A stretch of DNA of 64,000 nt from assembly GCA_003523055.1 (NCBI GenBank), contig DPHC01000008.1, positions 5,967 to 69,966 of the forward strand, given 5' to 3'. Positions 3,893 through 23,079 of the stretch are shown here, piece after piece. Each line of letters opens with the position of its first letter. Position 1 is the stretch's first letter. This stretch comes from Dehalococcoidia bacterium. GTDB taxonomy: Bacteria > Chloroflexota > Dehalococcoidia > Lucifugimonadales > UBA3495. The notes beneath the pieces are model-generated. The model searched no databases. It saw nothing but the letters and a program-made list of their open reading frames with translations, and was not told where the DNA came from. The position numbers and the translations under genes were made by a program.

Positions 3893-3901
3893 CCCAAATT
3901 G

Positions 3902-6919: not shown

Positions 6920-7578
6920 TAGCCGTTTCGATGCGCGTAACTGAAAATAATACGTACGTTGAACAACGTGATAGCCTTAGCCACGACTGGGCTCAACTAT
7001 TTAATGCGATATCAGTGACACCAATACTAATACCTAATTTAATTGAGGATCCTACAAAATATTTAAAAGATCTTCCAATATCTGGATTAATACTAACCGG
7101 AGGAGAATCCGTAATAGAGAATGACACTTCAACCCCAATCACTGCGTATAAAAAACGAGATGACACAGAACTTAACCTTTTAAGTTATGCAAGTGAAAAT
7201 AAAATACCGGTTTTGGGTACTTGCAGAGGCCTTCAATTAATAAACAGATTTTTTAATGGTAAAAATAGTTCAAGAATAAACCAAACCCATAGTCACAAAG
7301 TAGCATGCAATCATGATATAACAATTCTGACTAATTCAATTATTCCTGATATGTCTAAGCAAATAATTTCTGTAAACTCTTACCACGAAGACGGTGTTTT
7401 AATAGAAGAAATAAGTTCAGAGCTTAGAGCGTTTGCAACTTGGAATAACGAAACAGTGGAAGGAATATATCATCCCGAATTACCCATTTTGGCCATACAA
7501 TGGCATCCTGAAAGAAATCCTGAAATAACTTCATTAGACGAGAAAATAATCAATCACTGGGTCGAATTATGCAACTGA
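6913..7578 (+). CDS. Class I glutamine-amidotransferase-like / peptidase C26 hydrolase (Cj1417-like gamma-glutamyl-CDP-amidate hydrolase candidate)
   Basis: Nucleophile elbow PVLGTCRGLQLIN and a His in IQWHPER. Size about 220 aa. Position between the kinase-like and nucleotidyltransferase genes. Confidence 0.7.
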   Translation: MLIAVSMRVTENNTYVEQRDSLSHDWAQLFNAISVTPILIPNLIEDPTKYLKDLPISGLILTGGESVIENDTSTPITAYKKRDDTELNLLSYASENKIPVLGTCRGLQLINRFFNGKNSSRINQTHSHKVACNHDITILTNSIIPDMSKQIISVNSYHEDGVLIEEISSELRAFATWNNETVEGIYHPELPILAIQWHPERNPEITSLDEKIINHWVELCN

Positions 7579-8309
7579 TAATATTAGCTGCAGGCATGGG
7601 GTCCAGACTTAAACCCATAACAGATAATGTCCCTAAGGGATTAGTACAAGTTAACGGCAAATCAATACTAGAGTGGCAGGTTGATATAGCCCGACAGTTG
7701 GATATAACCGACATATGCATCGTAACTGGATATAAATCTGAATGCATTGACATACCTGAAACAACTACGATTCATAACCCTCAGTACAATACCACAAACA
7801 TGACACATTCTTTATTTTGTGCTCAAGAGTATTTTAAAGATGAATTCGTATTATCATATGGAGACATTATTTATTCTAAAAAAATTATGGAGAAATTATT
7901 AGATTCAAATGCACCAATATCCATAGTTGTTGATGACAATTGGAGATCATATTGGGAGGACAGATTCGATAATCCACTAGATGACGCAGAAAGTTTAACA
8001 ATAGCTAACAACCATATAACATCTATAGGGCAAAAACCAACTAGTTTAAACGATATAGAATCACAATATATAGGATTAATGTCTTTTAAGAACACAGGAG
8101 TGGCCTCATTAGTAGACTCTCATTCCGAGGTTCGCAGACATAATCCTTCTATTGCTCAACACATGTACATGACCGACTTACTACAATATATGATAAACAA
8201 AGAAATAAATCTCACTCCAGTCCATATTTCTAGTGGTTGGATTGAAATTGATTCATTAAAAGACCTTGAATTAGCTAAAATCTTGTTACCTAAAATAATT
8301 TTGTCATGA
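7569..8309 (+). CDS. Sugar/phospho-ligand nucleotidyltransferase (Cj1416-like CTP:phosphoglutamine cytidylyltransferase candidate)
   Basis: N-terminal LIILAAGMGSRLKPITDNVPKGLVQVNGKSIL is the canonical NTP-transferase signature. About 246 aa. Confidence 0.7.
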   Translation: MQLIILAAGMGSRLKPITDNVPKGLVQVNGKSILEWQVDIARQLDITDICIVTGYKSECIDIPETTTIHNPQYNTTNMTHSLFCAQEYFKDEFVLSYGDIIYSKKIMEKLLDSNAPISIVVDDNWRSYWEDRFDNPLDDAESLTIANNHITSIGQKPTSLNDIESQYIGLMSFKNTGVASLVDSHSEVRRHNPSIAQHMYMTDLLQYMINKEINLTPVHISSGWIEIDSLKDLELAKILLPKIILS

Positions 8310-9109
8310 AAAAAGTTTACAGATCTGAATCCAATATTGATTATTGGAATAGAAGATGGAGTGAATCAGGAACAGATGCTAAGGCATTCTTAGATCCTAA
8401 CATATACCCTGTAAAATACTCTAATTTAATAGTACAGGATAAAACCGAATGTTGTTTAGAAATTGGATCTGGGGTCGGAAGAATATTAAAGCATTACTTC
8501 TATCAAGGATTTAACATAACAGGAATTGAGAGAAGCAACATCGGTGTAGATACTATGCTAGCATCCGATAAAAATTTACCAGTTCAAATAGGTGATGCTG
8601 TAAATTTGCCATACGCAGATTCTACATTCGATAATGTGCTAGCATTTGGAGTCTTTCATAACATTGAAGATGAAGTGGCTCTAAAAAATAGTATTTCTCA
8701 ATGCAGTAGGGTATTAAAGCCGTCCGGAAGGTTTTGTATTTCCATCAGACCTGACAACTTAGAAATGAACTTAAATGAATGGTATTGGAAAATTTCTGGC
8801 TATAAAAAACAAAATCATGGAAATGACTCTACTACTTTTCATAGATGGTTGTTCAAAAAAAATGAATTTCAGCGAATCCTATCTAACAACAATTTACACA
8901 CAGTTAAAGTGCATGCAGCTCGCAATGTATCCATACTCTACCGGATAAAATGGCTTAGAACACAAAATAAAGACGAAACCTATCTGCGTTCTAATGGATA
9001 TAAGTTGAATTTCTTAGGAGCATCAATCGATAGATTGATAACCTTCATAATGCCTAACCAATTTTGCAATGTGTTTGTTTTCATAGGAGAGAAGCGACCC
9101 CAATGGTGA
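8306..9109 (+). CDS. Class I SAM-dependent methyltransferase
   Basis: CLEIGSGVGRIL motif I, acidic IERS, and DNVLAFGVFHNIED, a Methyltransf_11-like core. ATGA overlap upstream. Confidence 0.75.
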   Translation: MKKVYRSESNIDYWNRRWSESGTDAKAFLDPNIYPVKYSNLIVQDKTECCLEIGSGVGRILKHYFYQGFNITGIERSNIGVDTMLASDKNLPVQIGDAVNLPYADSTFDNVLAFGVFHNIEDEVALKNSISQCSRVLKPSGRFCISIRPDNLEMNLNEWYWKISGYKKQNHGNDSTTFHRWLFKKNEFQRILSNNNLHTVKVHAARNVSILYRIKWLRTQNKDETYLRSNGYKLNFLGASIDRLITFIMPNQFCNVFVFIGEKRPQW

Positions 9110-9621
9110 TCTGGATTATTGGGATGCCCGGAGCTGGCAAAACAGCAGTTGGTGCACTACTGTACAAACAAATATCATCTGACTACAAAAATACAGTTTT
9201 TATAGATGGTGATGATATACGCAATATCATGCTAAATGACTTAGGGCATACTATAGAAGACCGTAAAATAAATGCTACCAGAATTCGTAATCTCTGTAAG
9301 CATTTAGACAAGCAAAATATAAATATCGTGTGCTCTATAATGTCTATATTCCAAGAAGATCGGGATTGGAATCGCGAAAATTATGAATCATATTACGAAG
9401 TATTCTTAAACACTCCTTTGGAAATTTTAATTACCCGAGACCAAAAAGGTCTGTACTCGAAAGCTTATGACAATCAAATTAAAGATGTTGTCGGAATAGA
9501 TATACCTTTTAATCCACCTACTAATCCTGACTTGATTATAAACAATGACCCTAAAATTATAAATTTACAACAAATAACTGAAACGATTTATGACGCTATA
9601 CAAAAACAATTATCAAAATGA
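9103..9621 (+). CDS. Adenylylsulfate (APS) kinase-family kinase (Cj1415-like cytidine diphosphoramidate 3'-kinase candidate)
   Basis: P-loop IIGMPGAGKTAVG, then FIDGDDIRN, DRKINATRIRNL and RDQKGLYSKA, which follow the CysC pattern. The ATG at 9103 overlaps the upstream stop (ATGGTGA). The ORF track starts earlier, at 9064. Confidence 0.75.
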   Translation: MVIWIIGMPGAGKTAVGALLYKQISSDYKNTVFIDGDDIRNIMLNDLGHTIEDRKINATRIRNLCKHLDKQNINIVCSIMSIFQEDRDWNRENYESYYEVFLNTPLEILITRDQKGLYSKAYDNQIKDVVGIDIPFNPPTNPDLIINNDPKIINLQQITETIYDAIQKQLSK

Positions 9622-10232
9622 TTATGTACGTTTATACACTTACTAACATACTAAAAAAGAGACAAGACTACATGTACACTCCCTGGCATGGGAAAGATTT
9701 CATAACCGAGTACATTTCGAACAGGAAGCACGCATTGTCAAAGCTAGAAGACAATTATACGACCGCAGTAAGTGAATACGAATTAATCAAAGATATAGAA
9801 TCAACATTACAAATTCAATCAAGTCAAAAAACTCAAAATATAAACACTACCGCTATGTTGCTGGCATTAATTAACAATAATCTAGAACTCACAGATCATG
9901 CATCCGCATTATTTAAAATAGAATCTTTGCTAAAATCATTCGAAGTCAGAAAAAAGATTTACACTAAATACAATGAACTGTTTAAACCTTTGTCTAAAGA
10001 ATTCTCAAATTTAGAAAATTATATATTATTTTGTATAGTGTTACTAAAACAATTCACATTAACTAACGAATACAGGTATCTAAACACTATACTAAAGCTC
10101 AATGATCTGATTATATCAACAGGACTTGAGTCAGTAACAAAAACTAACAAGGCATTAATATCATTACTATTAACAAGAGAATTATCTTGTATACAGAAAC
10201 TTCTACAAGAAAGATCCATACAAGATGAATAA
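9618..10232 (+). CDS. Hypothetical protein
   Basis: 204-aa ORF, translationally coupled at both ends (ATGA overlaps). No recognisable motif. Confidence 0.5.
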   Translation: MIMYVYTLTNILKKRQDYMYTPWHGKDFITEYISNRKHALSKLEDNYTTAVSEYELIKDIESTLQIQSSQKTQNINTTAMLLALINNNLELTDHASALFKIESLLKSFEVRKKIYTKYNELFKPLSKEFSNLENYILFCIVLLKQFTLTNEYRYLNTILKLNDLIISTGLESVTKTNKALISLLLTRELSCIQKLLQERSIQDE

Positions 10233-10935
10233 GATTAATATCGGGTTATTAGGAGTGGATTCAATACGAACCAGAGCGTATATATCTGTGTTAACAAAAT
10301 TAAATATTACTCTAGAAGAAGCAATCATATTAAGTGGAGGGAAAAGCCATACACCTGAAGTAATCGAAAAAAGTTCTTATTTCAATAATCAAATTCACTC
10401 CATAAAAATGCTTCAAGCTTTAGGAACTCCTATAAATATATTAGAAACTTCAGACATAAATGATACAACAGTAGTTACAGCTTTAAATCATTCACGCCCT
10501 AAGTTATTTATATACTCAGGAAGTGGTGGTTCAATTATTAAAAATAATATTCTATCAACCCAAAAACAATTCCTACACATACATCCAGGCATATTGCCTG
10601 AATACCGCGGTAGCACAACTATTTACTATAGTCTTTTAAAAGAAAACAAATGTGGTGCCTCGGGTATAATTCTAGATGAAAATATAGATACTGGACCAGT
10701 AATTGCTAGCAAAGAATTCCCACCACCAGATAACAGAAAGTCTATAGATTATGAATATGATCCTTATGTAAGATCTGCATTATTATCAGACATATTGACT
10801 TATTATCTACATAACGGAAGGCTACCTGAAAAAATCAACCAAAACAGAGAAGGTTTTAATTACTACATTATGCATCCACTGTTAAGACACATTACCATGC
10901 TTTCACAAAGTCACCCATCAAATAGCGGAGTATGA
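10225..10935 (+). CDS. Formyltransferase-fold protein (N-formyl/N-acyl transferase candidate)
   Basis: LHIHPGILPEYRGSTT and DENIDTGPVI match the HxSLLPxxRG ... DxGxI core of Fmt/PurN-type formyltransferases. Confidence 0.65.
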   Translation: MNKINIGLLGVDSIRTRAYISVLTKLNITLEEAIILSGGKSHTPEVIEKSSYFNNQIHSIKMLQALGTPINILETSDINDTTVVTALNHSRPKLFIYSGSGGSIIKNNILSTQKQFLHIHPGILPEYRGSTTIYYSLLKENKCGASGIILDENIDTGPVIASKEFPPPDNRKSIDYEYDPYVRSALLSDILTYYLHNGRLPEKINQNREGFNYYIMHPLLRHITMLSQSHPSNSGV

Positions 10936-10936
10936 T

Positions 10937-11977
10937 ATGAATACATTTTACATAGACAACAAATTGGTCGGAGGCAACCGCTGTTTCATCATAGCCGAAA
11001 TCGCTCAAGCACATGACGGCAGTTTAGGTACAGCCCACGCATACATAGATGCTGTAGCGAAATCTGGTGCAGATGCCATCAAATTCCAAACCCATATTGC
11101 TTCAGCTGAAAGCACTCCAGATGAACCTTTCAGAATAAATTTTAGCAAACAAGATGAAACAAGATATGACTACTGGAAAAGAATGGAATTCACAGAAAGT
11201 CAGTGGGTCGGGCTATATGAACATTGTAATGAAGTTGGCATTACTTTTCTAAGTTCCCCATTTTCAGAGGAAGCCGTTGAATTGTTAGATAGCATCAACA
11301 TGCAAGCTTGGAAAGTAGCATCTGGAGAAATTAGTAACATACCTATGTTAACCAAAATTGCTGAAACAGGAAAGCCAATATTAATATCAACAGGCATGAG
11401 TGATATTGATGAAATTCACGAAACTCTGAATTATTTAACCCCGTATGAGAGCCCTGTCCTGATATTTCAAACGACTACTGCTTATCCGTGTCCTCCTGAA
11501 AAAATAGGTATAAACAATGTTCAATTATATAGGGATTTGTTTAATCTCCCAGTTGGGTTATCTGACCACTCAGGAACTATTTTTTCAGGTCTAGCCGGAG
11601 CAGCTATTGGCATTAACATGCTGGAAATCCACATAACATTCTCCAAACACATGTTCGGCCCAGACGTAACTGCTTCTATAACAACCGATGAATTAACGAC
11701 GCTTGTCACAGGAATTAGATACATAGAATCAATGAAAAATAACCCCGTAGACAAGAATCTAATAGCAGCTGAATTAAAACCACTCAGAGAATTATTTGCG
11801 AAAAGCATAGTAGCAAAGTCCAATTTACTGGAAGGGCATATTATTACTCTTGCTGACGTTGCATATAAAAAACCTGGGAATGGGCTATCTCCAGATAGCA
11901 TATCGCAAATAATTGGTAAACCATTAAACAAACCTGTGAAGACAGATAAACCAATTTTACTAACTGACGTAAATTAA
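10937..11977 (+). CDS. neuB: NeuB-family nonulosonic acid synthase (N-acylneuraminate/legionaminate/pseudaminate synthase type) with C-terminal SAF domain
   Basis: CFIIAEIAQAHDGSLGTAHAYIDAVAKSGADAIKFQTH, SDHSG, and a C-terminal SAF-like segment. The sugar specificity cannot be told from the sequence alone. Confidence 0.85.
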   Translation: MNTFYIDNKLVGGNRCFIIAEIAQAHDGSLGTAHAYIDAVAKSGADAIKFQTHIASAESTPDEPFRINFSKQDETRYDYWKRMEFTESQWVGLYEHCNEVGITFLSSPFSEEAVELLDSINMQAWKVASGEISNIPMLTKIAETGKPILISTGMSDIDEIHETLNYLTPYESPVLIFQTTTAYPCPPEKIGINNVQLYRDLFNLPVGLSDHSGTIFSGLAGAAIGINMLEIHITFSKHMFGPDVTASITTDELTTLVTGIRYIESMKNNPVDKNLIAAELKPLRELFAKSIVAKSNLLEGHIITLADVAYKKPGNGLSPDSISQIIGKPLNKPVKTDKPILLTDVN

Positions 11978-11991
11978 TTAGATATTTAAAA

Positions 11992-12702
11992 ATGAAAGAA
12001 TTAACAACATTAGCAATCATACCTGCTAGAGGAGGATCTAAATCCATACCCAAAAAAAACATTGTCGACTTACATGGTATACCTTTGATAGCACACAGTA
12101 TAAATACTGCGAAACAAACCTCATTAATAGATAAAACAATAGTAAGCACAGATTCGGAAGAAATCAAAGACATAAGTTTACAATTCGGTGCAGAAGTACC
12201 TTTTCTCCGGCCAGAAGACATTGCTCAAGACCACACACCTGACCTACCAGTATTTATACATTGCTTAAAATGGTTAGCCCAAAACCAAGATTATGTTCCA
12301 GATTTCGTGATTCATTTACGACCTACTACTCCATTTAGAGACATTTCCGTGATAGAAGATTGTATTAATCTCATGAAAAAAAACCTTAACGCAGATTCTT
12401 TAAGAGTTGTGACAATGTCCAAAGAACATCCATACAAGATGTGGACTTTCCAACCCTGTTCACTATACTTGAAACCATTATTAGATTCAGATATAGATGA
12501 ACCTTACAATCAACCCAGGCAAGCCCTTCCTACAACTTTCTTCCAACCCGGATATATAGACGTAATTAGGACCAATACAATACTACAAAAAAACTCCATG
12601 TCTGGTGACAATATTCTAGGGCATGTGCTTAAAGACAGCACAATTGTAGATATAGATGACCAATTAAGTTTAGATTTTTCCAGATTTTTATCTCATGAAT
12701 AA
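11992..12702 (+). CDS. neuA: Acylneuraminate (CMP-nonulosonate) cytidylyltransferase
   Basis: AIIPARGGSKSIPKKNI signature, about 236 aa, directly downstream of neuB. Confidence 0.85.
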   Translation: MKELTTLAIIPARGGSKSIPKKNIVDLHGIPLIAHSINTAKQTSLIDKTIVSTDSEEIKDISLQFGAEVPFLRPEDIAQDHTPDLPVFIHCLKWLAQNQDYVPDFVIHLRPTTPFRDISVIEDCINLMKKNLNADSLRVVTMSKEHPYKMWTFQPCSLYLKPLLDSDIDEPYNQPRQALPTTFFQPGYIDVIRTNTILQKNSMSGDNILGHVLKDSTIVDIDDQLSLDFSRFLSHE

Positions 12703-13693
12703 TTTTCAAGATTACTCAAACATAAGTGCTCTGATAGTAGGCTTAGGATCTGTCGGAACAAGACATTTAAATAATTTGAAATCCATAGGTGTCAAAAACC
12801 TAGGTGTTTACAGATCTCAAAATAATCATACAGTGCAAAATGCAGACCTAGATAATGTAAACATATATTATGACTATAAAGAGGCATTAGATCACGGGTA
12901 CTCATCAGTGTTCATTTGCAATCCTACTTCAATGCATATGGAATACGCACTAGAAGCAGCCTATAGTAAATGTAACTTATACATTGAAAAACCATTATCC
13001 AATAATTTAAACCATACTGAAGAATTAAAACATTTACAAAGAGCAAACAACTTAGTTGTCGCATTAGGGTACCAGTTTAAATTCCATCCAAATCTCAAAG
13101 CTATAAAAGAATGGCTAGGCAACAATGCCATAGGCCAGATAGTTCATTGTGCTGCAGATGTAGGCGAATATTTACCTTCATGGCATCCATGGGAAAACTA
13201 TAGAGACAGCTATGCTGCCAAAGCTGAACTAGGAGGAGGAGTAGCTCTAACACTCATCCATGAAATAGATTATTTGGAATGGTTACTCGGAGATCTCACA
13301 TTGGTATCATCACATGGTGGTACCTCAACAGTGCTGAAAACTGATGTAGAAGATTTCATAACAGCGACATTAATGACACCCAATAATACACCCTTGAATT
13401 TGCATATTGACTACTTGCAAAATCCTGCTTGTAGAAAGCTAAAAATCATAGGAGAAAAAGGAATAATCGAATGGAATTATTACACAGGTACAGCTAATTT
13501 AACGATTTCGGGAAATATCGTAGAAACATCCCTCGTGGCAAAAAGCTGGGAAAGGAATACAATGTTTATAGAAACATTAAATAACTTCTTACAATGTACT
13601 CAAACAATGGAAGAACCGATGTCAAATTTAAATAATTCTAGCCACGGGCTGGAAATCACATTAAAAATAAAAGATTCAATAACTCTGTCATAA
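12695..13693 (+). CDS. Gfo/Idh/MocA-family NAD(P)-dependent oxidoreductase
   Basis: N-terminal Rossmann IVGLGSVGTRHLNNL, the EKPL motif (YIEKPLS) and a C-terminal alpha/beta domain. Confidence 0.8.
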   Translation: MNNFQDYSNISALIVGLGSVGTRHLNNLKSIGVKNLGVYRSQNNHTVQNADLDNVNIYYDYKEALDHGYSSVFICNPTSMHMEYALEAAYSKCNLYIEKPLSNNLNHTEELKHLQRANNLVVALGYQFKFHPNLKAIKEWLGNNAIGQIVHCAADVGEYLPSWHPWENYRDSYAAKAELGGGVALTLIHEIDYLEWLLGDLTLVSSHGGTSTVLKTDVEDFITATLMTPNNTPLNLHIDYLQNPACRKLKIIGEKGIIEWNYYTGTANLTISGNIVETSLVAKSWERNTMFIETLNNFLQCTQTMEEPMSNLNNSSHGLEITLKIKDSITLS

Positions 13694-13711
13694 AACTACT
13701 GTGAGGCTCTA

Positions 13712-14815
13712 ATGTACGATATAAATTTTTTGCATAAAACAAATACTATAAAAAAAGACCTAATGAATGGCGATTTAACTTCAAAAGACATTATCTCTTT
13801 AGAAAAACAATTCGAAAACCTCCGGTCAAAGAACCCTCATGTCTTTAATATAGAAACTACTAATCACTGCAACATGACATGCCTCATGTGCCCGCGTACG
13901 AGCTTGATGACCCGTCAGGTATCTTGGATAGATGATGAAACTTTTGAAAATGTTCTGGATCAAATGACTCCCCACAACCAAGATAATCTAGAAGAATTCT
14001 GGGATCATATTAAGACAGAATACGGCATAACTTTTGATGAACATTCAGAAAACGCATTTTATTTCTATGTAGTCTCACGATGTGTAATACTACATGGATA
14101 CGGGGAACCTTTAGTAGATAAAAATATAATCAATCGTGTGCAAGCATGTACCGATAGAAATATACCTACATATTTCTCATGTGTTCCAGCCAATTTATCA
14201 GTTGAACGAGCAGAAAGTGTTATGAAAGCAGGGTTAACTGTCATGAAATTATCAATCGACGCTTTAGATGACGTAAACGCTAAACGAATACGTGGCAGAT
14301 ATAATAATTTTGATAAAGCCTATCAAACTGTTCTAGATGTGATAAAGATGAAAGAAGAGAAAGGATATAAAACCCTAATAGTGCCAACAATGATAGAACT
14401 TAACAGCGGAGAAGATAACAAAGAAATGCAACAACAATTCATAGATATGTGGAAAGGGCTTGATGTTTTTGCTTATGTAAAAAGCCAGGATAACCGATGG
14501 TATTATGAAGAAGACGAAGAATTAGAAAACAAATCCCATTACGCCCAGCAGTACTGTGAATATCCATGGTCTTCAATGACAGTAATGGCTAATGGTGACG
14601 TAGTACCGTGTACTCAAGACTATGACTGCGAAATGAAATTAGGAAATGTTAAAGACCAAAGTTTAGATGAAATATGGAATGGAGAAAAATATAATTTGCT
14701 CAGGGAATGGCATCTAAAAGGAAACTTCCCCAAAAACTTTAAATGCGTTGGCCGCTGTGACCAAACAAAGCTTTACCAAGTCATAGACAAAAACACTAAA
14801 AAAGCTTCAAAATAG
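13712..14815 (+). CDS. Radical SAM enzyme with C-terminal SPASM/twitch-type auxiliary cluster domain
   Basis: CX3CX2C at C53-C57-C60 (HCNMTCLMCPR). C-terminal CEYPWSSMTVMANGDVVPC (C-x12-G-x4-C) followed by further Cys residues (DYDC, KCVGRC). Confidence 0.85.
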   Translation: MYDINFLHKTNTIKKDLMNGDLTSKDIISLEKQFENLRSKNPHVFNIETTNHCNMTCLMCPRTSLMTRQVSWIDDETFENVLDQMTPHNQDNLEEFWDHIKTEYGITFDEHSENAFYFYVVSRCVILHGYGEPLVDKNIINRVQACTDRNIPTYFSCVPANLSVERAESVMKAGLTVMKLSIDALDDVNAKRIRGRYNNFDKAYQTVLDVIKMKEEKGYKTLIVPTMIELNSGEDNKEMQQQFIDMWKGLDVFAYVKSQDNRWYYEEDEELENKSHYAQQYCEYPWSSMTVMANGDVVPCTQDYDCEMKLGNVKDQSLDEIWNGEKYNLLREWHLKGNFPKNFKCVGRCDQTKLYQVIDKNTKKASK

Positions 14816-14826
14816 AGGAGATCCTC

Positions 14827-15735
14827 ATGACATCAGAACAGAATCAAATAAATATTGAAGATTTGATCAACCGACCTTCTCCAACTATCATCGCTGAAAT
14901 AGGATGCAACCACAAAGGAGATTTGGACACAGCAAAAGAAATGATCAAAATAGCTAAAGTATTCTGTGATGCACAATACGTCAAATTTCAAAAAAGGAAC
15001 CCCAAAGAACTTCTTAGCTATGAACAATATAATACTCCACATCCTATTGAAGAAAATTCATATGGGAAAACTTATGGAGAGCATAGAGAGTTTTTAGAGT
15101 TCTCAGTTGCACAACACCAAGAATTAATGGAATATTGCGAGGAAATTGGAATAGGCTACAGTAGTTCTGTGTGGGATATGACATCTGCTAAAGAAATAGT
15201 CAGCCTAAATCCAGATTTTATTAAAATTGGTTCTCCATCAAACACTCACACTAAAATGATTGAGTATATATGCAAGGAATTTCATGGAGATATACACCTT
15301 TCCTTGGGTATGACTACACCAAAAGAAGAATCAGAAATCATAGACACATTTCAAAAATATTCCAGATTAAGCGACTTAGTGTTATACCATTGCACATCAG
15401 GGTATCCAGTTCCACCAAAAGACATATGTCTTTTATCTATAAGTAGGTTGAAATCAGACTATCAGGAGCAAATCAAAGGGGTTGGCTTCTCAGCACATTA
15501 CACTGGAATAGGATTAGATGGTCCTGCTTTTATATTAGGCGCAGATTACATTGAGCGCCATTTTACACTAGATCGTGCATGGAAAGGCACGGATCATGCA
15601 GCGTCATTAGAACCAGATGGGCTGAGAAGAGTACGTAAAGACACATTAACGATTTCACAGGCGCTCAGCTACAAAACCCAAGCTATTATGGACATTGAAA
15701 AACCAAATAGAATTAAGCTCAAATACACAGACTAG
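14827..15735 (+). CDS. Second NeuB-family (sialic-acid-synthase-like) aldolase-type synthase, short form without SAF domain
   Basis: IIAEIGCNHKGDLDTAKEMIKIAKVFCDAQYVKFQKRNP and a FSAH motif. At 302 aa it ends before any SAF domain. Good GGAG RBS upstream. Confidence 0.75.
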   Translation: MTSEQNQINIEDLINRPSPTIIAEIGCNHKGDLDTAKEMIKIAKVFCDAQYVKFQKRNPKELLSYEQYNTPHPIEENSYGKTYGEHREFLEFSVAQHQELMEYCEEIGIGYSSSVWDMTSAKEIVSLNPDFIKIGSPSNTHTKMIEYICKEFHGDIHLSLGMTTPKEESEIIDTFQKYSRLSDLVLYHCTSGYPVPPKDICLLSISRLKSDYQEQIKGVGFSAHYTGIGLDGPAFILGADYIERHFTLDRAWKGTDHAASLEPDGLRRVRKDTLTISQALSYKTQAIMDIEKPNRIKLKYTD

Positions 15736-15744
15736 ATTGCTTAC

Positions 15745-17208
15745 ATGGATGCAGCAAACAAAAGAATAGCTTTATTAATAGAACAAGGATTCGGGGCACG
15801 AATACTATTACAAACAGATATACTAGAAACACTAATTAATTCTAACTTAAACCCTATCATCCTTACATCTGGGCCCGAAGCAATAGGAAATTACTTAAAA
15901 GATACTAAATTCTCTAAAATACCTATTCATCATTTAAATATTGAAAAAAACAAAACCCTAAAGCTAAACACTCTCATACGATTATTATCGTTCATCAGAC
16001 TTTTTTCTTTAAAAACTCGAACAGTTAAAGATTTGTTCAAAATGGAATTGTCAGATAGTAAAGCAAGTCGGAACATTAATAATAAATTATTTATGATATT
16101 GGTAAGATTCTTCGTTTACATTTCTAAAATAAATTATAGATTAATTTTTTTATTCATCCGGATAGAAAATAGAATTGCATTAAGAAACAGTAATGAGCTA
16201 TTTTTTTCCAAATATAAACCAGACGTACTGTTAACAACAAGCATCGGAACGTTTGATAATGACGCTAATCTAATTCGAGAAGCTAAATCCAGAGGTGTCA
16301 AAGTAATTAGTTACATCTTAAGCTGGGATAACAGTACAGTACGTGGATTCGGAATTAATTTAACTGACGACATAATCACATGGTCCGATACGATGAAAAA
16401 AGAATTAACTACATTGCATCACCTACCAGAAAATAAAATACATGTTGGAGGAGTCCCTCACTATGATACTTATGCCCGGCCTGATGCGTTGTGGAGTAAA
16501 CACGAATTGTTTCATAACATGAAAATACCGGTTACCAAAAACGTGATCTTATTAGGCACCAAATCTCCCAATGCATACAAATCCAACATGCAAGTAGCCG
16601 AAATAATATGTGATTTGATAAGTTCTGAGGAATCACTAAAAGATTATATTTTAGTAGTCAGATTACATCCCCTATATTTCAGATCCTCAGGAAATGGAAG
16701 TAATTTAATATCAGAAGATTGGAATTCGCTTGTTGAAAAATTTGGTTCAGAAGTCATTAACATGGATTATCCGCAGATAATTGGAAACGACTTACGTTAC
16801 TTTATGCCACAAGAAGAAATGGCTAAATTGGGATCCTTATTAAAGCATAGTAAAGTTGTAGTAAACATGTTTTCAACATTGAACATAGAGTCAAGTATTT
16901 TTGATATCCCAACAATAAATGTATGTTTCCAAGATGATTCCATGAAGAGCAATGATTATAAACAAGCTAGATTCAACATAGTCGCAGATTCTATACAAAC
17001 ACACAATCAAAGAGTAATCCAATATGATGCCACTGTGATAGCTTACGAAAAACATCAACTGCTTGAATTACTTAAGGCATCTTTATCACATCCAGAGCAA
17101 AAAAAACAAGGTCGAGCAAAACTTGTTAACTCGGAATGTGGAGAGAATTTAGGAGAATCTGGGGTATATATTGGTAAACTAATATCCAAATTATCCTATT
17201 CCGTATGA
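15745..17208 (+). CDS. Uncharacterised GT-B-like protein (candidate glycosyl/ulosonate transferase), paralog A
   Basis: 487 aa. Conserved SWDN motif (ILSWDNSTVRGF) and a C-terminal segment FSTLNIESSIFDIPTINV, typical of the GT-B/TagF-like nucleotide-sugar half. The family assignment is tentative. Confidence 0.45.
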   Translation: MDAANKRIALLIEQGFGARILLQTDILETLINSNLNPIILTSGPEAIGNYLKDTKFSKIPIHHLNIEKNKTLKLNTLIRLLSFIRLFSLKTRTVKDLFKMELSDSKASRNINNKLFMILVRFFVYISKINYRLIFLFIRIENRIALRNSNELFFSKYKPDVLLTTSIGTFDNDANLIREAKSRGVKVISYILSWDNSTVRGFGINLTDDIITWSDTMKKELTTLHHLPENKIHVGGVPHYDTYARPDALWSKHELFHNMKIPVTKNVILLGTKSPNAYKSNMQVAEIICDLISSEESLKDYILVVRLHPLYFRSSGNGSNLISEDWNSLVEKFGSEVINMDYPQIIGNDLRYFMPQEEMAKLGSLLKHSKVVVNMFSTLNIESSIFDIPTINVCFQDDSMKSNDYKQARFNIVADSIQTHNQRVIQYDATVIAYEKHQLLELLKASLSHPEQKKQGRAKLVNSECGENLGESGVYIGKLISKLSYSV

Positions 17209-17218
17209 TTTATTACAT

Positions 17219-18682
17219 ATGACAATATTTATACAAGCCTACCGATCATTTAGCATGAGATATATCATCGGTACCGACATATTTAAAACACTTATATCAA
17301 GTAATTGCCAAATAATCATTTTCGTATTAGAAGAGGATTTCCAATATTTTACAGATATATTTAAAAACACTTCTGTAATAGTAGAGTCTGTACATTACAA
17401 AGAATTGTTCAGTGATCTAAGAAAAAACCGCATAACAAATTTTTTAAACCTACTGAGAGTTCTTACATCTGGCCGACAAAGTACGCTAATAAATACCAAC
17501 ATATCAATATACAAACGTGACTACAAAAAACAATTTTCATACGGATTTGGTATTTATATTTATAAACTAATTACTATAAGCAGTTTCATAACTTGTAATT
17601 CAATCTTGGCTAGAAAAGTACTTTCATTTTTATTATCTATATCTTTTAAAGGTAAAATTTATGATAAATACTTTGAAAAATACAATCCTAAAACATTAAT
17701 AATATCTTCATTAGGTTACGGAATAGATCTTCATATGATGCATGCAGCAAAACGCCACAAATGCCGAATTATATCCATACCTCATAGCTGGGATAATCCG
17801 ACCACCAAAGGATATCGCGGGCCTAAGCCTGATTTAGTGTTCGCATGGACCAATCGCATGGCTACAGAAATTGCAGCTTTCCACGATCTTCCTAAAAATA
17901 TTATTAAAGTGTCGGGAGTTGCGCACTGGGATGATTACTTTAACGGAACATTGATTCTAAATAACAAGGACTCATTCATTATAAAGCACAATCTAGACCC
18001 GAATAAAAAAGTCTTATTTTACGCTCTAAGCGGACCAGCAAATTTTGAAAAACGGCTTGAAGTAATCGAAGCAATATTAGGCATTATTAAAAACAATCCA
18101 AGTAATTATAATCTACAATTACTTGTCAGGTTTCATCCTTTACACGTCCACAGGCATACATCAGGAGCAACATGGATGGAGCTACATGAAAACGATATAA
18201 GTGCTCTAAAAATGAAATATGGAAACCTAGTTACCTTTTGGGTCCCTAAGGAACCTCACAAAAATCAAATAAGCCAATTAGGAATGTCCGATATGCATGA
18301 TATGGCGTCAGCTATTCATTATTCAGATGTTTTAATTCAAGAATACTCAACCTTAATACTAGAATCTACAATATTTGATAAACCAACCATAAATATCAGC
18401 ATGTTCGCTTACCGTCAAACTGATCATTCGAATTTATTAGCTACTTTGATACATTTACAATATATATTGAAGTATGACACGTCAACAACTATACAAACTT
18501 TCGAGGAACTAAAAACAACAATTTTTAAATATTTAGACAATCCAGAAATTAAACAAAATGAACGTAGGAAATTGTTTAATAACGAACTTAATATTAACCC
18601 AGGAAGCGCCGGGAACTTCATTGGAAACAGCATTTTAAAGTACATGGACGATCTAGTAGTTCAAGGATCAAGCTCTCAATAA
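17219..18682 (+). CDS. Uncharacterised GT-B-like protein, paralog B (tandem duplicate of the previous gene)
   Basis: Also exactly 487 aa. Same landmarks (IPHSWDNPTTKGY, RFHPLH, YSTLILESTIFDKPTINI) at equivalent positions. Confidence 0.45.
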   Translation: MTIFIQAYRSFSMRYIIGTDIFKTLISSNCQIIIFVLEEDFQYFTDIFKNTSVIVESVHYKELFSDLRKNRITNFLNLLRVLTSGRQSTLINTNISIYKRDYKKQFSYGFGIYIYKLITISSFITCNSILARKVLSFLLSISFKGKIYDKYFEKYNPKTLIISSLGYGIDLHMMHAAKRHKCRIISIPHSWDNPTTKGYRGPKPDLVFAWTNRMATEIAAFHDLPKNIIKVSGVAHWDDYFNGTLILNNKDSFIIKHNLDPNKKVLFYALSGPANFEKRLEVIEAILGIIKNNPSNYNLQLLVRFHPLHVHRHTSGATWMELHENDISALKMKYGNLVTFWVPKEPHKNQISQLGMSDMHDMASAIHYSDVLIQEYSTLILESTIFDKPTINISMFAYRQTDHSNLLATLIHLQYILKYDTSTTIQTFEELKTTIFKYLDNPEIKQNERRKLFNNELNINPGSAGNFIGNSILKYMDDLVVQGSSSQ

Positions 18683-20509
18683 ATGTGTGGTATATCTGGA
18701 ATAATAGGTAATGACTGGGAGGAGTCCTCTCTAGATAAAATGATTACGTGTCAAATTCATAGAGGGCCAAACAATAGTGCTAAGTTTGTAGATGAATCTA
18801 AATTTGTAGGGCTTGGACATAATAGACTCTCTATACAAGACCTTAGAGAAGAAGCCAACTGTCCCATGACTGATAATTCTGGAAATTTAACATTGATATT
18901 TAATGGTGAAATATATAATTTTATTGAATTACGTGAACAATTGAAAGAATATACTTTCAAAACTAGTAGTGATACAGAGGTTATTCTAGCTGCATATCTG
19001 AAATGGGGAAAACAGTGCGTCACAAAATTCATAGGCATGTTCGCTTTAGCAATTTGGGACAATAAAAATCATTCTTTATTTTGTTCTAGGGATAGGCTTG
19101 GCATCAAACCTTTTTATTATTACTATAAAAACAATACATTAATATTCGCATCGGAAATCAAGAGCATATTGGCTGCTAAAGTCAAAGCTGAACCTAACTG
19201 GAACCAATGGTCAGATTACCTGAGATTTGGTGCAATGGATCATTCTCACGAAACATTTTTCAAAGACATCTACATGTTACCAGCTGGCCATAACTTATTA
19301 TTACACAATTTCGAATTATCTTTCCAACGATACTGGAATGTAGAAGATGCATCTATTGGCATAGATACCAGCGACCTCAAACAATCTACTGATTATCTAT
19401 ATAGTCTGCTAACCGATACCGCATCATTGCATTTACGTAGTGATGTACCTGTAAGTGTGAATCTATCTGGTGGAATTGACTCGAATCTTTTAGCTTTATT
19501 AATTGATAAACACACTACGTCAGACACCTGTTACTCTTTCACAAGTTCATTCGAAGACAAAACATATGATGAATACCAATATGTTAAAACATTAAAGTTA
19601 AATAATATAACCAAATTAAGTACTCTAACCAATTTTGAAGATATTCCTACACTCGCATACAAACTTACTAAAATACAAGAAGCGCCCTTTGGAGGAGTCC
19701 CGACCATAGCATATTACAAATTACACCAATCAATAAAAGAGCATAAAATCCCTGTTTCTTTAGAAGGACAAGGAATTGACGAATTGTTCGGCGGATACAC
19801 TTATACTCATCCTTATCATTATGCGGACATAGTAAAAACACATGGATGGACATTTTTATTACAAGAGTATCCAAATGCCGCCCAATACAGGAAAGTTATT
19901 GAATCAATTATTGAAGGCCATCCTGAAACAGTCAGTCAAGATGGTACAAGTCATTTACGGACCCAAGCCATTAACAAAGAACACTTATCGAACAAGAATG
20001 AACAACTCAAAATTGTAAGCCCTTACTCTGATAACCTTCGGGATACTTTATATAAGGATTTATTTCATACTAAACTACCTAGAGTTTTACGAATGAACGA
20101 CAAATTATCTATGTCTCAAAGCATTGAATTGCGGGAGCCATTCTTAGACCACCGTATAGTGGAGTTTGCTTTTAATTTAGATAACAATCTAAAAATAAAT
20201 CGTAGCGGTGGCAAATTCATAATTCGCCATCTTATGCAAAATTTAACTGGAGGGGACAGTTCTTACATTAAGAAACTTAAAATGTCGGTTGTGACTCCTC
20301 AAACAACATGGCTACAGAATGAACTATCTGGATGGGTAGAAAGCATATTAAACTCTCAATCATTCAAAACCAGAGGTATATTTGACACTCAAGTTGTAAA
20401 ATCACTATACGCTGATTTCAAAACTCACGGCTCAAATAATTCTTCCTACATTTGGCAATGGATAAATACTGAGCTGTGGTTCCAAACATTTATTGATCAA
20501 GCTATTTAA
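18683..20509 (+). CDS. Asparagine synthase (glutamine-hydrolysing)-family amidotransferase
   Basis: MCGI N-terminal Cys nucleophile (Ntn GATase). PP-loop SGGIDS (VNLSGGIDSNL). About 608 aa. Confidence 0.9.
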   Translation: MCGISGIIGNDWEESSLDKMITCQIHRGPNNSAKFVDESKFVGLGHNRLSIQDLREEANCPMTDNSGNLTLIFNGEIYNFIELREQLKEYTFKTSSDTEVILAAYLKWGKQCVTKFIGMFALAIWDNKNHSLFCSRDRLGIKPFYYYYKNNTLIFASEIKSILAAKVKAEPNWNQWSDYLRFGAMDHSHETFFKDIYMLPAGHNLLLHNFELSFQRYWNVEDASIGIDTSDLKQSTDYLYSLLTDTASLHLRSDVPVSVNLSGGIDSNLLALLIDKHTTSDTCYSFTSSFEDKTYDEYQYVKTLKLNNITKLSTLTNFEDIPTLAYKLTKIQEAPFGGVPTIAYYKLHQSIKEHKIPVSLEGQGIDELFGGYTYTHPYHYADIVKTHGWTFLLQEYPNAAQYRKVIESIIEGHPETVSQDGTSHLRTQAINKEHLSNKNEQLKIVSPYSDNLRDTLYKDLFHTKLPRVLRMNDKLSMSQSIELREPFLDHRIVEFAFNLDNNLKINRSGGKFIIRHLMQNLTGGDSSYIKKLKMSVVTPQTTWLQNELSGWVESILNSQSFKTRGIFDTQVVKSLYADFKTHGSNNSSYIWQWINTELWFQTFIDQAI

Positions 20510-20510
20510 C

Positions 20511-21431
20511 ATGAAATATATCTTTTGTATAATTAGGAAACTGTATAACAAAGTAAAAATATCGTTTCTTAAATTAATATTAAATTCTAATAATTTCCAA
20601 TTATATTCTTTACGAGCCTCACTTTATGCAAGGTTTTTAACTGAAAATCTACAATTGGACACTCACATCAAATTAGTAGACAGCTTACCATTCTTCAATA
20701 CTAATAACTTAGAAACCACCACATCTCCAGATTACAAGAGATTAATGGTGTTCGCGCCACATCAGGATGATGACATAATTGGATGCGGCGGAACTATATT
20801 AAATAGCATAAAAAACAAAGCTGAAATACAAGTAACTTATATCATGGATGGAGCTCCTCCTAAATTTCATGGTTCTCAAAGAACTGAGTACGTCAACACT
20901 CGGAATATTGAAGCTATTAATGTGTGGAAAACCATCAATAACAGTACTCCAATATTCCTCGAAACGCCCACAAGAGGGATAGCAATTGACCCCCAAACAG
21001 TAATTACAAAAATACAGGATGTTATTTCTAAATATGATCCGGATTGTATTTTTGTACCGTATTTTTTGGAAACACCTCTTGATCACCGAAGGAGTTCATA
21101 TGTTATTTGGCAAGCCCTGCAAAATATCAAACATAATATTAAACAAATATGGTGCTATCAAGTTACTACAATGATTAGCCCAAATATTGCAGTTGACATA
21201 TCTGACGTTGAACAGAATAAATTTGCGTTAATGAATTTATGGGAGTCCCAAAACAAATTATTCAACTATGCTCATCGTACGCGAGGGTTAAACGCAGCAA
21301 ACTCAGTTTATACTAAACAACTATCATCTTTGAAAAATACCCCCTATGTAGAACTGTTTCACGTATTAACCCCAAAGGAATATTCACAATTACTTCAACA
21401 CCACTATGCTAATACAAATTTATTCGGATAA
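20511..21431 (+). CDS. PIG-L/LmbE-family de-N-acetylase
   Basis: VFAPHQDDDIIGCGGTI is the AHPDDE-type zinc motif. ATG at 20511, just after the upstream stop. The ORF track start at 20493 overlaps asnB. Confidence 0.8.
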   Translation: MKYIFCIIRKLYNKVKISFLKLILNSNNFQLYSLRASLYARFLTENLQLDTHIKLVDSLPFFNTNNLETTTSPDYKRLMVFAPHQDDDIIGCGGTILNSIKNKAEIQVTYIMDGAPPKFHGSQRTEYVNTRNIEAINVWKTINNSTPIFLETPTRGIAIDPQTVITKIQDVISKYDPDCIFVPYFLETPLDHRRSSYVIWQALQNIKHNIKQIWCYQVTTMISPNIAVDISDVEQNKFALMNLWESQNKLFNYAHRTRGLNAANSVYTKQLSSLKNTPYVELFHVLTPKEYSQLLQHHYANTNLFG

Positions 21432-21436
21432 ATATA

Positions 21437-21922
21437 ATGACTACAACAAATAATATAGCTTTGTTTATAACAGATGTAGATGGAACGTTAACTGACGGAG
21501 GAATGTATTATTCTTCCCAAGGAGAGGTGATGAAAAAATTCAACACTAAAGATGCTGTTGGATTAAGACTACTACAAGAACAAGGAATAATAATTGCCAT
21601 AATTACAGGCGAAGATTCTGACATCGTTCGAGCGAGAGCCTTAAAATTAAAAATACAACATGTATACTGCGGTATATATGACAAACTAGCTATACTCAAC
21701 AGCCTTTGCGAACAACTAAATATTGATTCCCAAAATGTTGCATATGTAGGAGATGATCTCAATGACACAGAAATAATGAAAGCAGTTGGGCTATCGTTTG
21801 CTGTAGGCGATGCCGAAAAAACTATAAAAGAAATTGCCCATATCAATTTAGAACGATTAGGTGGATATGGAGCTGTACGTGAAGCAGCTAACTATATTTT
21901 GGAGCATCATAATGAAACGTAA
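21437..21922 (+). CDS. KdsC-family HAD phosphatase (ulosonate-phosphate phosphatase, e.g. KDN-9-P/Neu5Ac-9-P/Kdo-8-P type)
   Basis: FITDVDGTLTDGGMYY (DxDGT nucleophile motif), TKDAVGL, and VGDDLNDTEIM. 161 aa with no cap domain, as in KdsC. Confidence 0.85.
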   Translation: MTTTNNIALFITDVDGTLTDGGMYYSSQGEVMKKFNTKDAVGLRLLQEQGIIIAIITGEDSDIVRARALKLKIQHVYCGIYDKLAILNSLCEQLNIDSQNVAYVGDDLNDTEIMKAVGLSFAVGDAEKTIKEIAHINLERLGGYGAVREAANYILEHHNET

Positions 21923-23066: not shown

Positions 23067-23079
23067 AAAGGGAATCACT

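Follow-up and report, generated by a model that had tools for sequence, protein, structure and literature searches.

A conserved radical SAM/twitch enzyme family in nonulosonic acid gene clusters and its possible role in late-stage sugar tailoring

What would a radical S-adenosylmethionine (SAM) enzyme do among genes for sialic-acid-like sugars? The question is raised by a 64,000-nucleotide stretch of the genome of a Dehalococcoidia bacterium of the marine SAR202 type (GenBank assembly GCA_003523055.1, contig DPHC01000008.1, positions 5,967 to 69,966), referred to here as the window. An open reading frame (ORF) at 13712-14815 on the + strand, with an ATG start and a GAGG Shine-Dalgarno sequence 7 nt before it, encodes a radical SAM/twitch protein of 367 aa (P0001), of which the 1.79-Mb source genome has one gene copy. 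As the initial annotation of this DNA had proposed, the gene lies between two sialic-acid-synthase homologs, a NeuB at 10937-11977 and a NeuB lacking the SAF domain at 14827-15735, and is bracketed by the latter (there called NeuB2) and by a Gfo/Idh/MocA oxidoreductase gene at 12695-13693. Nonulosonic acids (sialic, legionaminic and pseudaminic acids and ketodeoxynononic acid, KDN) cap bacterial flagella, capsules and S-layers and govern phage and immune recognition. To our knowledge, the accepted schemes for their biosynthesis contain no radical SAM step, and our literature search found no paper linking a radical SAM/SPASM enzyme to NeuB or to a nonulosonic, pseudaminic, legionaminic or sialic acid pathway. 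We report that this protein is one member of a conserved enzyme family without a name, embedded in ulosonate pathways in nearly every case examined, and that it is very probably a small-molecule tailoring enzyme of such a pathway. More tentatively, we propose that the family may catalyse an unrecognised late-stage radical tailoring of finished nonulosonic acids, in which oxidation of a carbinol would feed stereo-inversion or amination.

The gene keeps similar company in other genomes. In a scan limited to one genome per species, 185 relatives were found, and the best 80 loci were taken with 10-kb flanks; neighbours were counted in the 73 loci with a callable radical SAM gene, by tblastn with the window proteins and by independent ORF clustering. 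NeuB lay within 10 kb of the radical SAM gene in 65/73 loci and within three genes in 53/73, a cytidine monophosphate (CMP)-transferase in 61/73 and 54/73, respectively, and one or the other in 69/73 and 63/73. By a rough estimate, the chance of finding NeuB in a 21-kb interval of a 3-Mb genome is ~1-2%. Homologs are thus linked to NeuB and not, as the initial annotation had considered, to genes for peptides that are made on the ribosome and modified after translation (RiPPs). The association with NeuB or the CMP-transferase is seen in Chloroflexota, Alpha- and Gammaproteobacteria, Nitrospinota, Acidobacteriota, Bdellovibrionota and Planctomycetota, and also in Omnitrophota, Thermodesulfobacteriota, Bacteroidota, Nitrospirota and Methanolinea. 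Of six loci without NeuB within 10 kb, five belong to genomes with NeuB elsewhere, and the sixth to a partial genome of 1 Mb. NeuB was also present in 9 of 14 control genomes, so its presence anywhere in a genome is weak evidence. Other recurrent neighbours among the 73 loci were a PtmA-like short-chain dehydrogenase/reductase (SDR; 39 loci), Gfo/Idh/MocA (35), DegT (21) and class-III (12) aminotransferases, B12-radical SAM genes (17), Maf-type flagellin glycosyltransferases (17) and KpsC/S-like transferases (21). Within the genus of the source genome, the radical SAM gene was found in three of four genomes, exactly those with both NeuB genes, and all are absent together from the fourth.

Membership of the radical SAM superfamily is indicated by a CX3CX2C motif, a match to Pfam Radical_SAM (PF04055) above its cut-off (40.6 bits against 29.5, E 4e-10) and a GGE-type motif. 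Conservation was assessed in two sets, an alignment of 22 diverse members (A1) and 76 proteins from the genomic loci. The CX3CX2C motif, correctly read in the initial annotation, is C53-N-M-T-C57-L-M-C60 (CNMTCLMC; nt 13868-13891, +); it is invariant in both sets and aligns with CNRTCWYC of BtrN, and its three cysteines are the predicted ligands of a SAM-cleaving [4Fe-4S] cluster. The GGE-type motif, H128-G-Y-G-E-P133 on strand beta-2, is invariant in the 22 homologs and pairs with FYGEP of BtrN. Toward the C terminus, the translation also contains the C-x12-G-x4-C motif that had been noted, as C282-x12-G295-x4-C300, followed by C345-x3-C349, in a twitch domain (nt 14555-14758, +) delimited from the translation and the alignment with BtrN. 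In the AlphaFold2 (AF2) model, C282-x12-G-x4-C300 lies on a beta-hairpin (E289-291/E296-298). Variation of the auxiliary cysteines among homologs would have spoken against the reading given in the initial annotation, and none was seen: C282, C300, C345 and C349 are, with the three SAM-cluster cysteines, 100% conserved in the 76 sequences and in A1, and are predicted to ligate one auxiliary [4Fe-4S] cluster fully. A fifth C-terminal cysteine, C306, is variable in both sets.

Of the SPASM/twitch label first given to the protein, the twitch part stands and SPASM proper does not. Only four C-terminal cysteines are conserved and there is no CX2CX5CX3C block, and we therefore rejected a full SPASM domain with two auxiliary clusters; the Pfam SPASM model (PF13186) scores 59.1 bits (cut-off 21.5, E 5.5e-16) despite the single cluster because its hidden Markov model also spans the twitch half. 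As judged from its sequence, the enzyme is of the twitch type with a single auxiliary cluster. A scan against NCBIfam/TIGRFAM gave no family above cut-off, the best being TIGR04317 (64.2 bits against 380), and the generic SPASM domain model TIGR04085 alone approached its cut-off (26.4 against 27). The protein is therefore outside every named family.

The family to which it does belong is discrete. A word-indexed database search returned 841 relatives, of which the top 120 are full length and 53-79% identical, the named ones spanning many phyla, and an exhaustive search of 50%-identity representatives gave 48 clusters with E < 1e-30. Full-length matches reach about E 1e-58, and beyond these generic radical SAM/SPASM proteins align only from residue ~125; it is this change from full-length to partial matches that marks off the family. 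Its members share a 42-aa N-terminal helical extension in which M1, I4 and F6 are invariant (76 sequences), and a family-specific two-helix insertion at approximately residues 89-123 (nt 13976-14080, +; AF2 helices H90-104 and H113-123) between helix alpha-1 and the GGE strand, which is missing from BtrN (where residues 51/57 flank the site). Six basic residues are invariant (R62, R68, K179, R194, K257 and R331), and together with the signature Y-V-K-S-Q-D-N-R-W they would fit an anionic sugar substrate. An eighth cysteine, C157 (codon at nt 14180-14182, +), lies in a conserved motif, YFSC(V/N)PAN, and is a non-ligand by homology with BtrN. It is kept in all true members bar two Cytophagales proteins with Ala. 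In the AF2 model, barrel strand beta-3 (E153-159) has this residue at its C-terminal end. This makes it a candidate catalytic or hydrogen-atom-donor cysteine. A PDB search with residues 120-277, intended to place C157 on BtrN, returned chance matches only.

BtrN, which the initial annotation had named as the nearest mechanistic precedent, is the closest solved relative. In a search of all PDB sequences with the A1 profile, BtrN (4m7t/4m7s) was far ahead of other entries (E 1.2e-14), with the CX3CX2C region aligned as well as the GGE strand and the entire twitch domain. C282, C300, C345 and C349 coincide with the positions of the four auxiliary-cluster cysteines of BtrN, and the twitch region aligns to BtrN 168-238 with 42.7 bits. 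The AF2 model (pLDDT 89.8, pTM 0.89) likewise placed BtrN at rank 1 in a Foldseek search of the PDB (E 6.1e-11, TM 0.66 on the length of BtrN), followed by SuiB, DesII, BlsE, SkfB and MoaA; DesII and BlsE are sugar-modifying radical SAM enzymes. BtrN is the 2-deoxy-scyllo-inosamine dehydrogenase of the butirosin pathway of Bacillus circulans (PDB 4M7T/4M7S), and its substrate is a small polyol/sugar and not a peptide. It shares with our protein a radical SAM core and a twitch domain with one four-Cys auxiliary [4Fe-4S] cluster (here predicted), as well as the twitch pattern C..G..PC-x-(E/Q)-D-(F/Y)...GN...IW...C-x2/3-C, and in several lineages an aminotransferase gene follows the radical SAM gene as BtrS follows BtrN. 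The two also differ in several respects. BtrN has 250 aa, compared with 367 aa here; its last Cys pair is CX2C and not CX3C; our family has the extra conserved C157; the barrel of BtrN is abridged, whereas the AF2 model of our protein has a complete six-strand barrel; and it serves aminoglycoside and not nonulosonate biosynthesis. The four-Cys-ligated auxiliary cluster of BtrN accompanies a two-electron oxidation of an alcohol to a ketone, whereas in MoaA the cluster has three cysteines and an open Fe site and the reaction is redox-neutral (PMC9012708).

At what point of a ulosonate pathway would such an enzyme act? In 39 loci a short NeuB (<320 aa, no SAF domain) is the one closest to the radical SAM gene, and a KdsC-like HAD hydrolase lies within 6 kb in 31/39 of these; in 24 loci the nearest NeuB is long, a KdsC-like HAD is found in only 2/24, and NeuC is typically present. 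The radical SAM enzyme therefore accompanies both sugar-phosphate (KDN-like) and N-acetylmannosamine (N-acetylneuraminic acid (Neu5Ac)-like) routes. On the protein tree, oxidoreductase-type and aminotransferase-type contexts are intermixed, with 14 label changes, and the parts common to all contexts are the NeuB synthase and the CMP-transferase. Taken together, the two routes, the intermixed contexts and the shared synthase and transferase argue for action after condensation, on the common 3-deoxy-non-2-ulosonate skeleton or its CMP ester, so that the enzyme probably acts on the finished nine-carbon skeleton. The position attacked is then likely to be C4, C7, C8 or C9, because these are common to KDN-type and Neu5Ac-type products.

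By analogy with BtrN, the reaction could well be the oxidation of a ulosonate carbinol to a ketone, a proposal to which we give somewhat less than even weight. The CX3CX2C cluster would cleave SAM to a 5'-deoxyadenosyl radical, which would take a hydrogen atom from a carbon that carries a hydroxyl group, either in the free ulosonate or in its CMP ester, with C4, C7, C8 or C9 as the likely site of removal. The resulting ketyl radical would pass an electron to the fully Cys-ligated auxiliary cluster, as in BtrN, giving a keto-ulosonate. In the source genome the adjacent Gfo/Idh/MocA protein may then reduce the ketone, for a net epimerisation; in the nearest relatives the overlapping PtmA-like SDR might do so; and in other lineages a DegT or class-III aminotransferase could turn the ketone into an amine, following the logic of BtrN and BtrS. 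We favour the ketone because of the fully ligated cluster, the place of BtrN as best relative and the recurrence of either an oxidoreductase or an aminotransferase; the substrate, the position attacked, the formation of the ketone and the partner enzymes are all points that we infer.

The evidence on partners is of two kinds. Of the 73 loci, 46 have an NAD(P) oxidoreductase no more than three genes from the radical SAM gene, 19 an aminotransferase, and 63 one or the other. In addition, SDR orthologs that are 49-58% identical to each other stand directly downstream of the radical SAM gene in Rhodospirillales, Roseibium, Acidiferrobacteraceae and Nitrospina, the nearest non-Chloroflexota relatives of the window gene, and in Roseibium and one further locus (L099) the two genes overlap. 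The cultured Roseibium aggregatum PHM038 carries a minimal, IS66-flanked cassette of four genes (L094 = L004, 7790-14057). These encode the radical SAM enzyme, the SDR, whose gene overlaps the first, a CMP-transferase whose 398 aa leave room for a HAD phosphatase, and a SAF-less NeuB of 310 aa. In the family to which Roseibium belongs, with 132 species, the radical SAM gene and the SDR ortholog were each found in PHM038 only. By our own count, no fewer than 26 of the 120 best SDR homologs come with a longest contig equal in length to that of a top-120 radical SAM match. One SDR sub-clade is thus tightly coupled to the radical SAM gene. A tblastn search of the window with the SDR partners of these relatives found no adh_short/SDR homolog; since the window has Gfo/Idh/MocA in its place, this suggests that Gfo/Idh/MocA is a non-orthologous replacement for the SDR, and the protein at 12695-13693 is a candidate partner reductase.

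As proof of partnership, adjacency to an oxidoreductase was upheld in part only. The SDR is PtmA-like, a type common without a radical SAM gene, and among the database homologs of this SDR is one that bears the name 'flagellin modification protein A'. The ptm-leg loci of Campylobacter and Plesiomonas start from GDP-N-acetylglucosamine via LegB/LegC and not with a short NeuB and a KdsC-like phosphatase. They share with the loci described here the families of the PtmA SDR, the PtmF Gfo/Idh/MocA protein, the CMP-transferase (LegF) and NeuB (LegI), and differ in that Table 5 of PMC4481668 lists no radical SAM enzyme.

Several observations weigh against a BtrN-type oxidation fed into partner enzymes. 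In the legionaminic-acid-type loci tabulated in the same paper, a PtmA-like SDR and a Gfo/Idh/MocA protein (PtmF) are ordinary components without a radical SAM gene (PMC4481668), and we found a PtmA-like homolog of 48% identity with no radical SAM gene within 8 kb; because PtmA and PtmF are usual in such loci, a neighbouring oxidoreductase gene says little about partnership. The counts of neighbours overstate the number of independent observations, as 24/73 loci come from closely related Anaerolineaceae. In Roseospira the gene is surrounded by NDP-hexose and flagellin genes, and its 10-kb flanks lack NeuB. Overall identity to BtrN is only ~16%, and the family has a 42-aa N-terminal extension and an insertion of ~35 aa, of which BtrN has neither. 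Finally, the near-invariant C157 would be less expected in a simple dehydrogenase than in a HygY/NeoN-type epimerase. The low identity and the context of NeuB, CMP-transferase and glycosyltransferase genes also rule out that the protein is a BtrN ortholog (2-DOIA dehydrogenase); it may work like BtrN though it is not a member of the BtrN group.

The last of these points leads to the alternative that survives best, a direct radical epimerase. The reaction would begin with the same abstraction of a carbinol hydrogen, after which C157 would return a hydrogen atom to the opposite face of the sugar and so invert the stereocentre, with no free ketone and no partner enzyme. HygY (hygromycin B) and NeoN (neomycin) are twitch/SPASM-type radical SAM epimerases that abstract hydrogen from sugar carbinols and have an auxiliary cluster and a catalytic cysteine, for which C157 is the candidate in our family; they differ in that their substrates are aminoglycoside pseudo-oligosaccharides. 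C157 lies outside the seven predicted cluster ligands and yet is conserved in all true members save the two Ala variants, and its place is at the C-terminal end of strand beta-3, such strand ends being where the active sites of TIM barrels lie. Loss of the cysteine in HygY, in the C183A variant of Besandre et al. (JACS 2021), reportedly turned the epimerase into a ketone-former. Both natural Cys-to-Ala variants directly precede a class-III aminotransferase, as would be expected if loss of the cysteine makes a ketone-former here too. In NeoN, Cys249 is the cysteine that returns the hydrogen atom (PMC10991966). On the other hand, many members that retain the cysteine also adjoin DegT or class-III aminotransferases (L013-15, L023, L049, L062), and an epimerase would give the SDR, for all its tight coupling and gene overlap, nothing to do in this step. 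We thus consider a direct epimerase unlikely, though a serious competitor to the ketone-forming reaction, and the Cytophagales Ala variants offer a natural test of the role of C157.

These two variants come from Cytophagales metagenome-assembled genomes (MAGs; L095 (= L038), 10001-15816, and L039). In both, the radical SAM gene is followed by genes for a class-III aminotransferase, a GT9 heptosyltransferase-family protein, a KdtA-like protein (Glycos_transf_N), a CMP-transferase and NeuB, in what looks like a lipopolysaccharide-core amino-ulosonate cluster. This set resembles the late oxidation-transamination logic of KdnB/KdnA of Shewanella, in which the ulosonic acid Kdo is oxidised and then transaminated to Kdo8N; KdnB is a metal-dependent oxidase of the alcohol-dehydrogenase family and not a radical SAM enzyme, and Kdo is an eight-carbon sugar.

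Could the enzyme instead act before condensation, remodelling a hexose, hexosamine or sugar phosphate that the SAF-less NeuB later condenses with phosphoenolpyruvate? The radical SAM gene adjoins a short NeuB in the window and in many other loci, loss of the SAF domain may point to a non-standard aldose substrate, and the invariant arginines and lysines would suit a sugar phosphate. These basic residues would fit a carboxylate or a CMP ester equally, however, and the same family also occurs with modules of long NeuB and NeuC (the 24 loci above; Pelagibacteraceae), which start from a different precursor. The intermixing of context types on the tree, with NeuB and the CMP-transferase as the only common parts, also argues against pre-condensation action, which we regard as improbable.

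The same oxidoreductase neighbours would serve a radical diol dehydratase acting with a reductase, following the logic of AprD4/AprD3. Here a neighbouring hydroxyl would be expelled to give a deoxy-ketone, for example in the C7-C9 glycerol side chain, which would then be reduced or aminated to a deoxy- or amino-deoxy-ulosonate without a 4,6-dehydratase. AprD4 with the NADPH-dependent AprD3 is an established precedent from apramycin C3'-deoxygenation, where a radical SAM gene likewise adjoins a gene for an NAD(P)H reductase (PMC5461906); in our loci the reductase would be the SDR or Gfo/Idh/MocA protein, which lies within three genes in 46/73 loci and overlaps in some. Many loci also have no PseB/LegB-type dehydratase beside NeuB. 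However, AprD4, which performs a redox-neutral dehydration, is only a remote structural neighbour, at rank 49 (E 1.6e-4) where BtrN is at rank 1. AprD4 and DesII are not known to have such an auxiliary cluster. Full Cys ligation of that cluster is a hallmark of oxidising twitch/SPASM enzymes (PMC9012708), and a dehydratase is, in our judgement, quite improbable.

A peptide or protein maturase, whether a SPASM/twitch enzyme of the RiPP type or one that activates the product of a nearby gene as the anaerobic sulfatase-maturating enzymes (anSMEs) do, is very improbable and was rejected: the Pfam SPASM match, weak partial matches to PqqE, mycofactocin and sactipeptide maturase models and the presence of SuiB-, SkfB- and CteB-type structures among the Foldseek neighbours point that way, but all NCBIfam maturase scores are at or below 64 bits against cut-offs of 170-650, no RRE/PqqD domain was found at E <= 0.01, the protein has one auxiliary cluster and not two, the window has no free small ORF at 13600-14900 and no sulfatase gene was found in it (the product of 2723-3892 has a sulfotransferase fold and is no sulfatase), and the loci of all 73 relatives have glycan genes around the radical SAM gene and no conserved small neighbour that could be a peptide precursor.

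The immediate surroundings of the gene agree with this last point. It is separated by 18 nt from the Gfo/Idh/MocA gene and by 11 nt from the short NeuB gene, and between 13600 and 14900 every small ORF of at least 20 aa overlaps a coding gene, and only one of these ORFs is not on the opposite strand; there is therefore no room for a precursor peptide, whose absence the initial annotation had already remarked. The gene is part of a surface-glycan island of ~44 genes, all on the + strand, from 257 to 49016, in which two interleaved ulosonate modules surround it. Module A comprises the full-length NeuB with SAF at 10937-11977 (Pfam NeuB and SAF; TIGR03569, 308 bits), a NeuC-type hydrolysing UDP-N-acetylglucosamine 2-epimerase starting at 21861 (TIGR03568, 370.9 bits against a cut-off of 235.9) and CMP-transferase 2 starting at 23080 (CTP_transf_3), the last two spanning 21861-23826. 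Module B comprises the 302-aa SAF-less NeuB-family synthase at 14827-15735 (Pfam NeuB, 212.9 bits; TIGR03569 covers positions 2-273 of 329), a KdsC/KDN-9-phosphate-phosphatase-like HAD hydrolase at 21437-21922, CMP-ulosonate cytidylyltransferase 1 at 11992-12702 (Pfam CTP_transf_3; PseF-like, 133.6 bits), the Gfo/Idh/MocA NAD(P) oxidoreductase at 12695-13693 (Pfam), which is directly upstream of the gene at issue, and finally the radical SAM enzyme itself. The HAD hydrolase scores 167.9 bits against TIGR01670 (cut-off 107) and 168 bits against NF058599 (KDN-9-P phosphatase), just under the cut-off of 180, and is the likely partner of the short NeuB. Further glycan genes nearby encode an AsnB-type amidotransferase, a PIG-L deacetylase and a PGDH-like 2-hydroxyacid dehydrogenase.

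The radical SAM gene is under purifying selection: against the closest ortholog, which is 79% identical, dN is 0.156 and dS is saturated. Two marine Chloroflexota/Dehalococcoidia MAGs (L001 and L002) are fully syntenic with 3899-24740 of the window, and the gene was not found in 57 other genomes searched of the same family or order. On the tree the nearest relatives of the protein are from Proteobacteria, which argues that the gene moves with the glycan island by horizontal transfer; a search of a plasmid collection found no family member, merely paralogs at 29-31% identity. The family as a whole is present in at least 13 bacterial phyla and in archaea. Its carriers include aerobes (Pelagibacteraceae, Roseibium), and the enzyme is therefore not merely an anaerobic stand-in for an oxygen-dependent step. 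In Rhodospirillales the gene lies amid flagellin, FlaF/FlbT and TPR-GT41 (FlmG-like) genes, a context that points to flagellin glycosylation.

If the proposal of carbinol oxidation in finished ulosonates is correct, bacteria and archaea could give sialic-acid-like sugars additional amino groups or a new stereochemistry and would not need the classical entry route through a 4,6-dehydratase and an aminotransferase to do so. Structures absent from glycan databases would then be expected on SAR202, SAR11/Pelagibacteraceae, Nitrospina, Anaerolineae, Omnitrophota and the Methanolinea MAG. Such chemistry would be a new reaction type in sugar biosynthesis and would predict novel sugar structures in globally abundant marine bacteria. 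The compact four-gene cassette of PHM038, a non-pathogenic marine alphaproteobacterium in culture, offers a tractable system; Roseospira visakhapatnamensis JA131 is a cultured carrier as well. A 2026 preprint reports unassigned CMP-ulosonic acids, one of them elongated in Magnetospirillum gryphiswaldense (bioRxiv 10.64898/2026.04.20.719630); since these came from untargeted mass spectrometry of CMP-sugars, products of this kind should be detectable. The preprint describes deacetylase and formyltransferase genes in a nonulosonic acid cluster and does not mention the radical SAM family (bioRxiv 10.64898/2026.04.20.719630).

A comparable pair of genes is present in the window, where a formyltransferase-like protein (10225-10935) and a PIG-L-type deacetylase (20493-21431) are encoded inside the ulosonate operon. 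In Ca. Kuenenia, a deacetylase/formyltransferase pair is tied to CMP-nonulosonic acids with free or formylated amines (bioRxiv 10.64898/2026.04.20.719630), and because of this parallel the sugar made at the window locus may be N-deacetylated or N-formylated. Directly after the short NeuB gene, tandem paralogs of 487 aa (15745-17208 and 17219-18682) give weak matches to BFO_1060 glycosyltransferase and 'surface carbohydrate biosynthesis protein' models, and are probably the transferases for the two CMP-ulosonates.

Just before the ulosonate genes on their upstream side, and with conserved synteny in L001 and L002, a cassette at 3899-9621 resembles, together with the sulfotransferase-fold gene at 2723-3892, the pathway to the cofactor for O-methyl-phosphoramidate in Campylobacter. 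It encodes a PPDK-like protein of 1006 aa (PRK05849, 799 bits), an NTP transferase, a Methyltransf_11 protein, an APS-kinase-like protein and a Peptidase_C26 protein whose match to gamma-glutamyl-CDP-amidate hydrolase, at 110 bits, is below cut-off. A trio at 28691-31789 (an NTP transferase, a 4,6-dehydratase-type SDR and a 440-aa DegT-family protein) is 45-54% identical to a conserved trio of Deltaproteobacteria and WOR-1 loci, and probably forms a CDP/dTDP-deoxyhexose branch of its own, with no connection to the radical SAM enzyme. Mid glycan operon, a zinc-carboxypeptidase (Peptidase_M14)-like ORF at 26250-27545 adjoins a gene for a KpsC/S-type Capsule_synth protein at 24769-26307. The island also contains, at 41002-43158, a 718-aa fusion of a zinc-type alcohol dehydrogenase (ADH_N/ADH_zinc_N) and a Gfo/Idh/MocA protein.

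The loci of relatives contain further arrangements of the same kinds of genes. In Rhodospirillales, fusions of ~750 aa that join CBS, NeuB, SAF and a xylose-isomerase-like TIM barrel (AP_endonuc_2) are encoded near the radical SAM gene (L013-L015, 5581-7827, - strand; L098, 2147-4432). In Pelagibacteraceae single-cell genomes (L016-L032, L096), the radical SAM gene stands before NeuB, NeuC, CMP-transferase and class-III aminotransferase genes, and is preceded by HisH/HisF-like genes and a gene for a protein of 401-404 aa without a Pfam match; as a guess, these preceding genes could form an amidotransferase set for an acetamidino group. In Campylobacter fetus subsp. testudinum, two phase-variable genes annotated 'Radical SAM, MoaA/NifB/PqqE/SkfB family' (CFT03427_1545 and _1558) are listed amid SDR, methyltransferase and formyltransferase genes (PMC6321876).

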